From NCBI RefSeq assembly GCF_001677475.2, contig NZ_CP015229.1: 64,000 bases of DNA; one strand, 5' to 3'. This DNA is from Escherichia coli. Lineage in GTDB: Bacteria; Pseudomonadota; Gammaproteobacteria; Enterobacterales; Enterobacteriaceae. Within the stretch, counting starts at the first letter, position 1, and every line of letters begins with the position of its first letter. The notes below the pieces were generated by a model. It saw only the letters and a list, made by a program, of their open reading frames with translations. It was not told the origin of the DNA and did no database searches. The translations under genes were made by a program, and so were the position numbers. Positions 1-52,627 of this stretch are shown one piece after another.

Positions 1-57
1 AAGAGCACTAATTTCGAGTACGCCCATCTGATATCTCTTGTTCCAGTATGTATCCCG

Positions 58-429
58 TCAGGCTCGGCGACCTTGTCGCGCCAACCAACGTGCAACAAGA
101 TCTTCCATTGCCTCTTTTTTATTTCTTAGTTCTTTTATGATCTCCTGCTGTTCATTATCAGGAAAAGCACTAAATATTTGTAGTAATTCCAATTGGTTAG
201 GGGTTAATGCCATAGATCTTGATGACGAAGATTCTGTTGTGTCTTCAGGTTCCATATCAAGATAACCCCCAGGCATCCCATATGTTTGCTCAATACGTCT
301 AGCTGCCTTTTCGCCAAACGTAGATTTACCGCTCATTAACTGAGATAAGTAACTTTTCTCTTTAGGCGGCAAAGTCCTGTCTTTGAACCACTCTTTGAGG
401 CGTAAACGCCGAATCTCTTTTGTTTCCAT
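58..429 (-). CDS. DicA/CI-like HTH repressor
   Basis: 123 aa; N-terminal HTH; C-terminal LTPNQLELLQIFSAFPDNEQ resembles DicA-type prophage repressors; divergent from a Cro-like gene. Confidence 0.7.
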   Translation of the reverse strand: METKEIRRLRLKEWFKDRTLPPKEKSYLSQLMSGKSTFGEKAARRIEQTYGMPGGYLDMEPEDTTESSSSRSMALTPNQLELLQIFSAFPDNEQQEIIKELRNKKEAMEDLVARWLARQGRRA

Positions 430-531
430 ACATTCATTATCTTTAGTAATTGCAAAACAAGCAAATACTTGACTGGTTTATTTAGTTGCGTATAAACTTT
501 CGCTTGTTCTAAATGTGCTGAGATAAAAATT
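430..531. promoter_or_regulatory. Divergent immunity-region promoter/operator interval
   Basis: AT-rich 100 bp between divergent repressor and cro-like genes; TTGACT -35-like hexamer and repeated TTAGT(A/T)..GC half-site-like motifs. Confidence 0.4.
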
Positions 532-819
532 ATGACGCTAAAGGAATTCATCAAATCATTAAAAATTGGAGAAGCAAAAAAATTTGCGACCAACCTTGGT
601 GTGTCTCCATCCTTCTTGTCCCAAATGGCATCTGGAACTTCACCTGTGTCTCCTGTTCGTGCGTTGATGATAGAAGCAGAAACTGGAGGACACGTTACAA
701 GACGCGAATTGAGACCTAATGACTGGGAGCTTATATGGCCCGAATACACTGGAATCACGTCCCCTTCACGTCACAAATATGAACTTAACACCAAAAAGGC
801 TGATGGGGTTGACTCATGA
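532..819 (+). CDS. Cro/YdaS-like HTH regulator
   Basis: 95 aa, HTH near N-terminus, first gene of rightward early operon, translationally coupled to next gene. Confidence 0.6.
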   Translation: MTLKEFIKSLKIGEAKKFATNLGVSPSFLSQMASGTSPVSPVRALMIEAETGGHVTRRELRPNDWELIWPEYTGITSPSRHKYELNTKKADGVDS

Positions 820-1241
820 TAATCAAGCATGAACACATCCGCATGGCGATGAATGCATGGGCGCATCCGGACGGTGAAAAAGTTCCGGCAGCTGAAATAA
901 CCCGGGCTTATTTTGAGCTGGGTATGACGTTCCCGGAGCTATATGACGACAGGCATCCGGAAGCGCTGGCTCGTAATACCCAGAAAATTTTCCGCTGGCT
1001 GGATAAAGACACCCCTGATGCGGTTAAAAAAATTCAGGCGTTGTTACCAGCTATCGAAAAAGCAATGCCGCCTCTGCTGGTGGCCCGAATGCGCAGCCAC
1101 AGTTCAGCCTATTTTCGGGAACTGGTGGAGACGCGGGAACGACTGGTGAGAGACGCTGATGATTTTGTCGCAGTGGCGATCGCTGGTTTCAATCAGATGA
1201 ATCGTGGTGGTCCGGCGGGAAATGCCGTGGTGATGCACTAA
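816..1241 (+). CDS. YdaT-like prophage protein
   Basis: 141 aa; N-terminal MIIKHEHI... and position after YdaS-like gene match the Rac YdaS-YdaT arrangement. Confidence 0.6.
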   Translation: MIIKHEHIRMAMNAWAHPDGEKVPAAEITRAYFELGMTFPELYDDRHPEALARNTQKIFRWLDKDTPDAVKKIQALLPAIEKAMPPLLVARMRSHSSAYFRELVETRERLVRDADDFVAVAIAGFNQMNRGGPAGNAVVMH

Positions 1242-1263
1242 AAGCACGGTGTTCGGGGGTTTT

Positions 1264-2232
1264 ATGAGCAGCAAGCTTCATGGTCTTGTCTGGGAAGGGT
1301 GCGCCTTCACTGGCATGATCTTATCCAGGGTGGCGGTTATGGCCCGTCTTGCAGACTACAGCAATGACGAGGGCGTGTCATGGCCTGCCATTGAAACTAT
1401 CCGGCGTCAGATCGGTGCAAGAAGTGAATCCACCGTGAAATCTGCTATTGCAGAACTGGCGAAAGAGGGCTGGCTGACGAAGGAAGAGCGTAAGGTCGGT
1501 GGGCGTAACGTAAGCAATATCTATCGGCTTAATGTGGAAAAACTCGAAGCAGCTGCAGCGGCGGCGCGTGAGGCATATAAACCGAAAAGAAAAATTAGCC
1601 CGGCAAAAAATGACCAGTTAACAGTTGACCAGTCAAATATTGCCCCATCAATGGTTGGCCCGTCAAATTTTGATGGATCAACTGTTGATAAAAAACTGCC
1701 GATTAGGGGGACGATGATTGACCCCGATCAGTCATTATTAAAACCTGATCCGTCAGATGAAAGATCTTCTTGTCCTGACGTTTCACTGCCGGACAAAAAA
1801 CAATCATCACCAGTTGAGCGATTTCTGGAGAAACACCCGGATGCGCATACCTGGAATGTGCAGAAGCGACAGTGGGGTACCCGTGAGGATGTCGCCTGTG
1901 CGCAGTGGATTTGGGGACGGGTTGTTGCGTTGTATGAACAGGCCGCCAGTGATGATGGTGAGGTATCACGCCCCAGAGAACCTAACTGGACGACCTGGGC
2001 GAATGATGTGCGCATGATGCGTATGCTGGATGGACGTAGTCACCGGCAGATTTGTGAAATGTTTGGGCGTGTCCAGCGGGATTCGTTCTGGGTAAAAAAC
2101 ATCATGAGTCCGGCAAAACTCCGGGAAAAATGGGATGAGCTGGTTATTCGTCTGGGGCGTTCGCCTGTACAGCGTTGCGTGAATCACATTTCTGAACCGG
2201 ATACCGAAATTCCGCCGGGGTTCAGGGGGTAA
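1264..2232 (+). CDS. Phage replication initiation protein (HTH, O-like)
   Basis: N-terminal winged-HTH segment typical of phage replication initiators; ATG at 1264 inside ORF 1249..2232; position after cro-like genes. Confidence 0.55.
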   Translation: MSSKLHGLVWEGCAFTGMILSRVAVMARLADYSNDEGVSWPAIETIRRQIGARSESTVKSAIAELAKEGWLTKEERKVGGRNVSNIYRLNVEKLEAAAAAAREAYKPKRKISPAKNDQLTVDQSNIAPSMVGPSNFDGSTVDKKLPIRGTMIDPDQSLLKPDPSDERSSCPDVSLPDKKQSSPVERFLEKHPDAHTWNVQKRQWGTREDVACAQWIWGRVVALYEQAASDDGEVSRPREPNWTTWANDVRMMRMLDGRSHRQICEMFGRVQRDSFWVKNIMSPAKLREKWDELVIRLGRSPVQRCVNHISEPDTEIPPGFRG

Positions 2233-2274
2233 GTGCTGATTTGAGGTCATGAAGTTATTTTCTCAGGAGAGTTT

Positions 2275-2676
2275 ATGGGGGCTATTTATACCGAAGAACA
2301 GCGGGAAAGGTTACAGCGTCACATCGTTGACCTTGTACGTAAAAACGGGCGTATGACAATGCCACAACTGGCATCGGCAACATATGCTTCACATGATTCC
2401 ATTCGCCGGTACCTGAAGATGCTGGTGAGCCAGGGCGAAGTGTATGTTGTCAGCGGAAAAGGGGTATTCCTTTCAGAGAGAGTTTACCGTGAATGGCTGG
2501 CAAGTTCGGCAAAAAAATCAAGGGTTATCCGCAAACCAGCACAAAAACAGGGTAAGGCCGGAGTACAACCCTACGACCGGCACCAGAACGTAATTTGCCG
2601 GGAATGTCGTAACAGCGAATCAATGCAGCGGGTACTGGCTTTTTACAGGGGTGGATTTCAGGAGCTCGTATCGTGA
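2275..2676 (+). CDS. Hypothetical protein (possible DNA-binding)
   Basis: 133 aa ORF with RBS-like AGGAGAG upstream; no recognisable motif. Confidence 0.45.
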   Translation: MGAIYTEEQRERLQRHIVDLVRKNGRMTMPQLASATYASHDSIRRYLKMLVSQGEVYVVSGKGVFLSERVYREWLASSAKKSRVIRKPAQKQGKAGVQPYDRHQNVICRECRNSESMQRVLAFYRGGFQELVS

Positions 2677-2981
2677 AAAAGTGGGTGCGTGCCGAGATAC
2701 TGATTCTACGGCAGTGTGCGGGAACAATGACGGTGGAATGCATCGGGATGCTTATTGGTCGTAGTGAGGCTGCGGTCAGAACGAAAGCGCGGGAACTGGG
2801 TATTAGTATGATGTTACGGGGTGATTATCACCAGTCAGCAAAATATCCGCAGAGTGATATTGAGCTGGCGCGACAGCTGCATCAGCGTGGCGTGTCCAGG
2901 AGAGAAATCGCCAGAAAATTTGGAATGCCGCTGCGCACAGTGAATAACTACGTTTATTTCGACAGGAGGGTGTCTGCGTGA
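2673..2981 (+). CDS. Hypothetical HTH protein
   Basis: 102 aa, overlapping start/stop with neighbours; HTH-like segment. Confidence 0.4.
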   Translation: MKKWVRAEILILRQCAGTMTVECIGMLIGRSEAAVRTKARELGISMMLRGDYHQSAKYPQSDIELARQLHQRGVSRREIARKFGMPLRTVNNYVYFDRRVSA

Positions 2982-3223
2982 AAATCCTGTATCAGGATTA
3001 CGGCCCGGTGGGACAGGTGGTTATCAGCAGTACTGTAATGGAGTTCCGGAAGCATAACCGTGTGGTGGATGCAGTGCTGTTAGCCTGTCCGGGGATATCG
3101 GCGAGCCGTGCAGGTGTGTTTTTTATGAAGACGAAGTTATATGGCAGTACAGCGTGGATAAAGAAGGCGTACCGGGTAGCGTTGCAGGAGGTAAACAGTG
3201 AGCGAATCGGCAACCATTCTTGA
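2978..3223 (+). CDS. Hypothetical protein
   Basis: 81 aa ORF translationally coupled in the operon. Confidence 0.3.
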   Translation: MKILYQDYGPVGQVVISSTVMEFRKHNRVVDAVLLACPGISASRAGVFFMKTKLYGSTAWIKKAYRVALQEVNSERIGNHS

Positions 3224-3686
3224 TATGTCCTGTGGCAGTCGTATGTTCTGGTTCGATAAGAATGACGACCGGGCGATATTTAGCGATATCAGAAAAGAAG
3301 AGCACACATTATGTGATGGACGACGCCTGATAATTAGCCCTGACCTGATAGCAGATTTTCGTGCATTACCATTTGCAGACGCATCGTTTCCGGTTGTTGT
3401 ATTCGACCCTCCGCATCTTGAGCGTGTTGGTGATAACGCCTGGATGGGAAAGAAATATGGACGGCTGAATAAAGATACCTGGCGTGATGATTTGCGGCAG
3501 GGATTTAAAGAAGCCTTTCGTGTGTTGTGGCCACACGGTGTTCTGATTTTTAAATGGAATGAAACGCAAATACCTGTCCGCCAGATATTGGCACTAACCG
3601 ACGCGAAACCAATCATCAGCCAGCGCACCGGTAAGAACGATAAAACACATTGGATTATTTTTGTGAAGGAAGCGACCAGTGGGTAA
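3198..3686 (+). CDS. Phage orphan DNA methyltransferase (N6-adenine type)
   Basis: 162 aa; motif VVVFDPPH (DPPY/DPPH catalytic motif IV of amino-methyltransferases); no adjacent restriction endonuclease. Confidence 0.65.
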   Translation: MSESATILDMSCGSRMFWFDKNDDRAIFSDIRKEEHTLCDGRRLIISPDLIADFRALPFADASFPVVVFDPPHLERVGDNAWMGKKYGRLNKDTWRDDLRQGFKEAFRVLWPHGVLIFKWNETQIPVRQILALTDAKPIISQRTGKNDKTHWIIFVKEATSG

Positions 3687-5843: not shown

Positions 5844-6143
5844 TTATAAGAAATCGGTTTCATAACTTTGCCCACCATGATAGATACCGACAATAAAGAC
5901 TTTTCTGCCATCAACGGCAAAAGCAATAATCGTTCTGTGGCGGAAATGAGTTACCCGCATCCCCTGGCGAATATCATCGCGTTTATTGCCCCGATGCGGG
6001 AATGTAGAAAACCCATCAAGATAATCAAGAAGCGCATTGGCATAATTGTCAGCAATGACGTTCCCTGCTTTCTCCGTTATATATCTGTGCAGGTTGATTA
6101 TTTGTTGTTCGGCCTCAGGAGTAATGATGACTTCATATGTCAT
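5844..6143 (-). CDS. ParE/RelE-family type II toxin
   Basis: 99 aa; start MTYEVIITPEAEQ and end FIVGIYHGGQ are typical of ParE toxins; downstream of antitoxin in same operon. Confidence 0.7.
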   Translation of the reverse strand: MTYEVIITPEAEQQIINLHRYITEKAGNVIADNYANALLDYLDGFSTFPHRGNKRDDIRQGMRVTHFRHRTIIAFAVDGRKVFIVGIYHGGQSYETDFL

Positions 6144-52539: not shown

Positions 52540-52627
52540 TGGCGGAAGCGCAGAGATTCGAACTCTGGAACCCTTTCGGGTCGCCGGTTTTCAAGACCGG
52601 TGCCTTCAACCGCTCGGCCACACTTCC
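52540..52627 (-). tRNA. serT: tRNA-Ser (anticodon UGA)
   Basis: Reverse complement reads GGAAGTGTGGCCGAGCGGTTGAAGGCACCGGTCTTGAAAACCGG...GGTTCGAATCTCTGCGCTTCCGCCA; long variable arm; matches E. coli serT. Confidence 0.9.

Follow-up and report, generated by a model that had tools for sequence, protein, structure and literature searches.

The window analysed here is a stretch of 64,000 nucleotides (nt) of Escherichia coli DNA (contig NZ_CP015229.1, assembly GCF_001677475.2), whose positions 1-3300 form a module, for immunity and early replication, of a lambda-like (Rac-like) prophage. Our subject is the O-like replication initiator gene of this module (1264..2232) and an array of short, internally symmetric repeats that lies in the middle of its coding sequence. 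A sequence-only reading had likened these repeats to the iteron origin of lambda, which is located inside the O gene, and it is this proposal that we develop and weigh below.

The initiator gene and its repeat array

The gene is intact as an open reading frame (ORF), and its start codon is supported by RefSeq homologues that begin at the corresponding ATG. Its features, with protein positions given in amino acids (aa), are as follows.

1264..2232, plus strand: replication initiator gene, O-like, 322 aa (PHROG 391 'replication initiation O-like', E 4e-104)
1264..1575, plus strand: N-terminal winged helix-turn-helix domain, aa 1-104 (Pfam HTH_36 at aa 25-71, E 2e-6; AlphaFold2)
1594..1698, unstranded: in-frame iteron array of 15-bp (5-codon) units (sequence, lag self-identity, family comparison)
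1690..1695, unstranded: A6 run at the end of the array, with a G-rich spacer (GGGGG, 1706-1710) after it
1718..1734, unstranded: distal composite site TTGACCCCGATCAGTCA, made of a half site and the imperfect dyad CGATCAGTCA (1725-1734), with a GATC
1746..1755, unstranded: distal perfect dyad TGATCCGTCA, with a GATC
1731..1770, unstranded: candidate unwinding region, moderately AT-rich, the gene's least stable 40-bp duplex stretch in a nearest-neighbour scan
1760..1775, unstranded: mosaic junction AGATCTTCTTGTCC, right boundary of the cassette formed by the N-terminal domain and the repeats
1870..2148, plus strand: C-terminal helical domain, aa 203-295 (lambda O homology; AlphaFold2 helices at aa 207-298)
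2167..2229, plus strand: C-terminal tail VQRCVNHISEPDTEIPPGFRG, near-identical to the very end of host DnaT (primosomal protein I)

The array takes up gene nt 331-435 (aa 111-145), with its five full units at nt 346-420 and the distal sites reaching aa 164, and it has the winged-helix domain (aa 1-104) on its N-terminal side and the helical domain (aa 207-298) on its C-terminal side. Its units start at 1594 (degenerate, ATTAGCCCGGCAAAA), 1609 (AATGACCAGTTAACA), 1624 (GTTGACCAGTCAAAT), 1639 (ATTGCCCCATCAATG), 1654 (GTTGGCCCGTCAAAT), 1669 (TTTGATGGATCAACT) and 1684 (a half site, GTTGATAAAAAACTG). The core of a unit is a 12-bp quasi-palindromic dyad, TTGAyCnrTCAA, in which TGA-n4-TCA is the invariant part. 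All five motifs quoted in the sequence-only reading lie where it had placed them (TGACCAGTTA at 1611-1620, TGACCAGTCA at 1626-1635, GGCCCGTCAA at 1657-1666, TGACCCCGATCAGTCA at 1719-1734 and TGATCCGTCAG at 1746-1756), but its count of five to six repeats had passed over two units, TTGCCCCATCAA at 1640-1651 and TTGATGGATCAA at 1670-1681, and neither the strict 15-bp period nor the internal dyad symmetry of the repeats had been noted. The repeat-encoded peptide, DQLTVDQSNIAPSMVGPSNFDGSTVD (aa 117-142 of ORF 1264-2232), is the low-complexity linker described there, and AlphaFold2 predicts it to be disordered.

The periodicity stands out from its surroundings. Self-identity at a lag of 15 nt reaches 38-39/60 at the array, where the window-wide mean is 15.8 (standard deviation 3.8), and this signal, with its lag-30 harmonic, is the strongest short-period signal of the 64 kb at lags of 3-45. 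The array went unreported by Tandem Repeats Finder because its units are only ~60-65% identical. Seven matches to the pattern TTG-n5-TCAA, which was picked after inspection of the data, occur in the 64 kb, four of them within the array and spaced by exactly 15 bp; in none of 200 dinucleotide shuffles did such matches form a group larger than two. Over the whole window TTGACCCGTCAA with up to three mismatches is not enriched (45 occurrences, 56.8 expected); it is only the local cluster of consensus matches that is significant, not the window-wide count. The second-strongest short-period self-similarity of the window lies at ~23360-23640 (lag 39 at ~23598, lag 10 at ~23364).

A peculiarity of the window's copy is a parallel CCG-to-CAG change at the same central position of three units (a C-to-A change, Pro to Gln, at 1616, 1631 and 1730). 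The related genes L062 and L067 have this variant in one unit (handles of this form denote the related records that were compared), and the three parallel changes look like concerted change among the repeats at a position of low information.

Beyond the array, the A-rich stretch that the sequence-only reading had described as following the repeats has a counterpart in the A6 run, which falls inside the repeat region, and in the moderately AT-rich segment 1731-1770, but as an AT-rich element it is weak. The least stable stretches of the gene, 1665-1694 and 1731-1770, are ~60-65% AT and belong to the least stable 1-4% of the window; ranked by stability against all 40-bp windows of the 64 kb, the latter falls only in the lowest 2.4%, which is weak evidence. 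An A-run stands at the equivalent place in the phages SfIV and phiP27 and in L007. The distal sites likewise have counterparts: relatives have GATCCGTCA where the window has the composite site, and at the place of the perfect dyad every lineage examined has GATCCGTCA two to three times, with the exception of phiP27, where the sequence is GATCCGCAA.

Other types of element were looked for in the same region. There is no consensus DnaA box near the array, only one-mismatch matches at 1533 and 1683. Over the whole window DnaA boxes (TTATCCACA, with up to one mismatch) are more numerous than expected (33 versus 13.8; 0/100 shuffles reached 33); 25 of the 33 are on the minus strand and they do not cluster at the proposed origin. 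A scan of the region with Rfam found no RNA family, and a promoter and terminator scan gave no convincing hit; all that it returned was a weak minus-strand hairpin resembling a terminator (1617-1600). FNR-type sites (TTGAT-n4-ATCAA) were considered for the dyads and rejected, the half-site spacing being 2 bp off.

The initiator protein divides into three parts. AlphaFold2 models the N-terminal domain as helices and a beta-hairpin wing (aa 71-89), with mean predicted local distance difference test (pLDDT) scores of 66-88 over 10-residue blocks, and this winged-helix domain is presumed to be the one that binds the iterons. Pfam gave no N-terminal Phage_rep_O hit for the window's initiator and only a sub-threshold match to DnaD_N, and in BLASTP the alignment with lambda O was confined to the C-terminal domain. 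With HTH_36 and no Phage_rep_O, the gene is thus O-like in its architecture and C-terminal domain, with a DNA-binding domain that falls outside the lambda O family. Residues 107-204 are predicted to be disordered (block means 28-45), and a disordered linker of this kind could tolerate a sequence dictated by the DNA.

The C-terminal domain (aa 203-295) aligns with aa 188-270 of lambda O at 43% identity over 93 aa (E 2e-24), and on this alignment it is a true homologue of the lambda O domain. The last 20 residues, RCVNHISEPDTEIPPGFRG, were found by phmmer against the PDB to be near-identical to the end of DnaT (2ru8_A residues 72-92; 9zbt_D residues 160-179). The DnaT-like tail accounts for annotations of such genes as 'primosomal protein I', and the resemblance suggests mimicry of DnaT as a way to reach the host helicase-loading machinery. 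A 2026 paper on the preprimosome gives no function for the DnaT C-terminal tail. Tails ending in ..IPxGFRG were also seen in homologous initiators with unrelated C-terminal domains (L006, L008 and L010).

Conservation of the repeats as DNA and their exchange as a cassette

The repeats were compared across 60 distinct homologous genes, drawn from E. coli prophages (82-98% nucleotide identity), IMG/VR contigs and phages; the phages (SfIV, phiP27, vB_EcoS-733R5, Flotzy, YeP1 and Klebsiella phage Kp4866-6) have 42-65% identity to the first 179 aa, that is, the N-terminal domain and linker. An in-frame array of 15-bp period was found at the equivalent place in all 60 genes, with three to eight units and with copy number changing only by steps of 15 bp.

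In the 96 distinct units from these genes the informative positions read T-G-A n4 T-C-A-A and form a dyad that extends across codon boundaries. The position before GAx, a third codon position, is T in 91/96 units, with V, S, I, F or N as the residue encoded there, and the base after TCA is A in 84/96, with K, N, T, M or I as the residue. When units were defined independently, by in-frame xxT-GAx only (the hyphen marking the codon boundary) and with TCA not presupposed, the codon two positions further on was TCA in 76/125 cases in the linker and in 0/127 elsewhere. Serine is encoded by TCA at 148 of the 239 linker Ser codons (62%), as against 62 of 415 (15%) outside it, and TGA-n4-TCA occurs at 18.4 per kb in the linker and at 0.21 per kb elsewhere in the genes. 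Furthermore, there are seven pairs of units that are reverse complements of each other, four cases being within one gene, and the members of such pairs encode differing peptides, DPS versus EGS or DGS (for example TGACCCCTCA, DPS, and TGAGGGGTCA, EGS). Pairs of this kind are predicted by a symmetric binding site and not by a peptide repeat.

Judged by these comparisons, the repeats are selected as DNA beyond the needs of the protein, with amino acids that vary while third positions and the core are fixed. The sequence-only reading had named as damaging the case in which the protein is kept among homologues and the DNA repeats are not; we found the opposite, namely that the dyad is kept across N-terminal domains of 42-100% identity, and so across strongly diverged lineages, while the pentapeptides vary.

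Comparison of related loci also indicates how the repeats are inherited. Between L001, the closest relative, and L003, identity is 98-99% through the N-terminal domain and repeats and 64% just past the junction, whereas between L004 and L005 it is 42% through the N-terminal domain and repeats and 94-99% after them. For L003 and L005 the identity is 98% or more in repressor and cro, drops to ~45% between the start codon of the initiator and gene nt ~490, and is 92% beyond that point. The mosaic breakpoints thus fall at the gene start and at gene nt ~490-500, and the switches in identity between L003 and L005 mean that the repeats travel with the DNA-binding domain of the initiator and not with the repressor or cro. 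On these alignments, the DNA-binding domain and the repeats make up a cassette of ~500 bp that is swapped as a whole, in exchanges in which neither the immunity genes nor the C-terminal domain need take part.

L005 is such a natural swap of the origin cassette, as its alignments indicate. Its initiator has an N-terminal domain of the lambda family (RefSeq 'phage O protein family') and its own repeats, of a TCAAAAtG type, from gene nt ~345. This E. coli prophage has near-identical immunity genes and an initiator C-terminal half that is 85-90% identical; at 2233-2405 it carries ~5 copies of CATCrGGTCAAAATG followed by three 12-bp repeats, TACAGAGAATAn.

Further afield, distant HTH_36 initiators (those of S107, ZF40, SI5 and a Vibrio phage) have unrelated repeats at the same gene position: units of ~21-24 bp with CCTGTGCC in S107 and ZF40, GGGGCAGGAGCTGACC in SI5 and GGTCAAATTCCGACC in the Vibrio phage. 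SI5 and S107 have the first ~45 aa and the C-terminus in common, but their helix/wing segments are different and so are their repeats. A different N-terminal domain, then, goes with a different set of repeats. In S107, ZF40 and SI5 (L093-L095, gene nt ~350-420) another element, GAACCAGTCA, lies just downstream of the otherwise differing iterons. SI5 has a single copy at the place where S107 and ZF40 each have two, 17 bp apart, and the element is conserved both as DNA and as protein (HSFEPVKEP).

A probable initiator-bound origin, its precedents and its rivals

We think it likely, from the sequence comparisons set out above, that the repeats are the iteron part of an initiator-bound replication origin situated inside the linker-coding middle of the prophage's initiator gene. 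The position of the repeats, their conservation at the DNA level, a C-terminal domain homologous to its counterpart in lambda O and the behaviour of the cassette all support the earlier proposal of a lambda-like origin within an O-like gene. The arrangement itself is ordinary, intragenic origins being an established principle in lambda, P22, phage L and Stx phages (PMC8022706, PMC7466680), and it is the repeat type that is previously uncharacterised.

Of the known systems, ori-lambda is the closest in layout. The direct comparison with lambda O that the sequence-only reading had called for places the lambda iterons at O nt 349-433 and the window's array at nt 346-420. In both, internally dyad-symmetric iterons lie mid initiator gene and code for the linker that joins an N-terminal DNA-binding domain to the homologous C-terminal domain; in both, the N-terminal domain and iterons form a specificity cassette, and the gene order is cI-cro-cII-O. 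Variation in iteron number is likewise known from Stx phages (four versus six; PMC7466680). Against these likenesses, the N-terminal domain of lambda O is Phage_rep_O and that of the window type HTH_36; the lambda iteron is 18-19 bp long with a spacing of 20-24 bp, whereas the window type has a 12-bp dyad, TTGA-n4-TCAA, at a strict in-frame spacing of 15 bp. The window's AT-rich tract is weak, there are two extra GATC-containing sites downstream, the window type is without a P gene (a DnaC-like ATPase is encoded in relatives, and in the window no loader gene), and the window's initiator ends in the DnaT-like tail.

P22 and phage L offer a parallel in that distantly related initiators each have their own distinct repeats in the coding region. 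P22 gene 18 contains four ~20-bp repeats and phage L gene 18 six imprecise 11-bp repeats, in both cases read as the origin (PMC8022706). They differ from the window type in repeat sequence and period and in encoding a DnaB-type helicase (gp12) beside the initiator. A tblastn search with the N-terminal part of the window's initiator returned no P22 or phage L, either among the matches listed (40 of 55 records) or in the organism summary.

Plasmid iteron replicons (RepA of pPS10, RepE of F, pi of R6K) combine a winged-helix initiator with directly repeated sites, as the window type does. Their iterons, of ~17-22 bp, are found outside the rep gene and usually have DnaA boxes at their flanks. The sites in the window differ in being intragenic and in having only one-mismatch DnaA boxes nearby.

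A plausible scenario for how such an origin would work is as follows. After derepression, rightward transcription from the promoter on the cro side would lead to expression of the initiator, whose N-terminal winged-helix domain would, as a dimer, occupy the TGA-n4-TCA dyads. On five to seven sites at 15-bp centre-to-centre spacing, together with two sites 40-60 bp downstream, an O-some-like nucleoprotein complex could then assemble that would destabilise the adjacent stretch of low stability (~1731-1770). The lambda-O-like C-terminal domain, possibly with the DnaT-like tail, would bring in the host DnaB helicase; in relatives the helicase step would use a phage DnaC-like loader, and the prophage in the window would depend on host DnaC. 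Initiator binding of the sites, unwinding and initiation at the locus and helicase recruitment are all steps that we infer.

A more far-reaching version of this model, which we put forward tentatively and think rather less likely than otherwise, is that the locus is a dual-coding element in which selection for symmetric sites dictates the sequence of a disordered linker. The 15-bp period would allow three to eight sites to be accommodated in frame, with origin strength and linker length changing together, and the DnaT-identical tail would recruit the host helicase machinery directly, which would explain the several family members, this one among them, that are without a phage loader.

Several considerations weigh against the origin interpretation, in general or for this copy. 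As the homologues share ancestry, the counts over the 60 genes are not counts of independent events. At a spacing of 15 bp neighbouring sites would lie on nearly opposite faces of the helix, unlike the roughly two turns of lambda, and the AT-rich element is weak in comparison with that of lambda. We found no literature on origin activity or initiator binding for repeats of the TGA-n4-TCA type: a full-text search of about 8 million papers with the motif strings returned unrelated primers only, the SfIV genome paper does not mention an origin and a paper on the replication region of Stx phages (PMC8044961) treats neither this type nor any repeats. The Rac prophage origin oriJ was weighed as a possible parallel, but the papers found on it mention the name without a sequence. 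The ORF list and Pfam searches revealed no helicase-loader gene (P or DnaC-like) directly 3' of the initiator in the window, where a gap (2233-2274) precedes the next gene. Perfect TGA-n4-TCA is present in only two of the five full units of the array, compared with four in L001, units 1, 3 and 4 being the ones that deviate, and divergence from L001 is greatest in the repeat region (92.9% identity, with 11 differences in 155 nt, versus 100% and none in the 469 nt downstream). Given the degenerate units, this divergence and the lack of an adjacent loader gene, the copy in the window could be weakened or inactive.

These last observations are what one would expect if the origin interpretation were right for the family and the copy in the window were a decayed, non-functional remnant in a defective prophage. 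Of the alternatives this one survives best, and we nevertheless consider it unlikely. The ORF is intact and the N-terminal domain conserved; the imperfect units TTGCCCCCTCAA and TTGGCCCGTCAA are also present in the O157:H7 prophage L002, and, being common to both, represent a common allele; and the three window-specific CCG-to-CAG changes lie in the unconstrained centre of the dyad. As for the loader, a DnaC-like ATPase is encoded next to the initiator in L002 (cf. L002 3461-5001), L004 and L005, but a DnaC-like loader gene beside the initiator is missing likewise from L001, L003 and the viable phage SfIV.

It is improbable, in our view, that the repeats are DNA binding sites of some other kind, either operator-like sites for autoregulation of the initiator or sites for a host factor, such as SeqA or Dam acting at the clustered GATC sequences of the distal part. 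Four GATC fall within 1676-1766, where the window average is 3.1 per kb, and GATC is kept inside the distal GATCCGTCA repeats of relatives; the link between the sites and initiation, moreover, is one that we infer. Yet the sites move as a cassette with the DNA-binding domain of the initiator, which speaks against the host-factor version, and they are located exactly where lambda-type O genes have their iterons. No other iteron array or initiator gene was seen in the 3.3 kb of the window's module that was examined, or over the 3-6 kb inspected at the locus of each relative, and viable phages such as SfIV and phiP27 need an origin somewhere. Autoregulation and origin function are, in any case, compatible with each other.

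That the repeats are a mere protein-level tandem pentapeptide (D-P-S-x-x) in a flexible linker, made and maintained by slippage and with no role as DNA, fits an array that is in frame, a copy number that varies by whole units as slippage products do and a low-complexity linker predicted to be disordered, but it is very improbable and largely refuted by the codon analysis, in which third codon positions are among the most conserved while amino acids vary, linker serines are mostly TCA, reverse-complement units give different peptides, the conserved dyad crosses codon boundaries and the pattern holds between lineages whose N-terminal domains are only 42-65% identical.

The prophage module and the initiator family

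The other genes of the module have the order of a lambdoid early region.

58..429, minus strand: gene in the position of cI, a repressor gene of 123 aa (ORF at the left end of the immunity/replication module)
532..819, plus strand: gene in the position of cro, YdaS family, helix-turn-helix (Pfam YdaS_toxin, E 1e-9)
816..1241, plus strand: gene in the position of cII, YdaT family (Pfam YdaT_toxin, E 1e-10)
2275-2676, next gene after the initiator: DUF977 gene (Pfam)

The ORF at 58..429 matches, in length and position, the repressor-position gene WP_001169687 of L003 and L005; a Pfam search with its product gave no match. A promoter-like site at 469-498, from the promoter scan, lies upstream of the gene at 532..819, and related phages label the counterpart of 816..1241 'activator protein cII'. 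After its initiator, L002 additionally has a DUF1627 gene.

At its right end the window runs into host DNA (hya/app genes) with 98.3% identity to E. coli, the best among complete E. coli genomes, so that a divergent Escherichia or a Shigella is conceivable as host. Adjoining these host genes is a tRNA-Ser(tga) gene on the minus strand, and tRNA-Met and tRNA-Arg(tct) genes lie within the prophage (the tRNA genes are at 10380-10631 and 52540-52627); the tRNA-Ser(tga) gene probably marks both the integration site and the right prophage end. The prophage also contains an Rfam match to C4 antisense RNA, the P1/P7-type immunity RNA, at 18652-18739 (72 bits, gathering score 45). An ORF of 99 aa at 5844-6143 on the minus strand resembles, by eye, toxins of the ParE/RelE type, and an annotated RelE/ParE toxin lies near the repressor in the related prophages L003 and L005.

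The replication module was also met on NZ_CP148542.1 (L097), a circular E. coli 'plasmid' of 15,977 bp that consists only of a lambdoid prophage segment, from repressor to lysis genes. Both ydaT and the initiator are frameshifted in it; it could be a lambda-dv-like replicon, an assembly artefact or the outcome of sequencing errors, and we did not use it as evidence.

Initiators of this type are widespread. A megablast search matched the gene in 1778 of 5426 complete E. coli genomes (about one third), at up to five places per genome, and the type is also present in phages of Klebsiella and Yersinia, in phiP27 and in the Shigella serotype-converting phages SfII and SfIV. The records examined leave the origin unmarked in their annotation tables and call the gene only 'helix-turn-helix domain-containing protein' or 'primosomal protein'. 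While the textbook picture is unaltered, the array of TGA-n4-TCA dyads at 15-bp spacing would give these prophages a testable origin, and with a site so defined it may be predicted which co-resident prophages have a common replication specificity. The array would also provide a clean case of a DNA element that limits codon choice within a gene.

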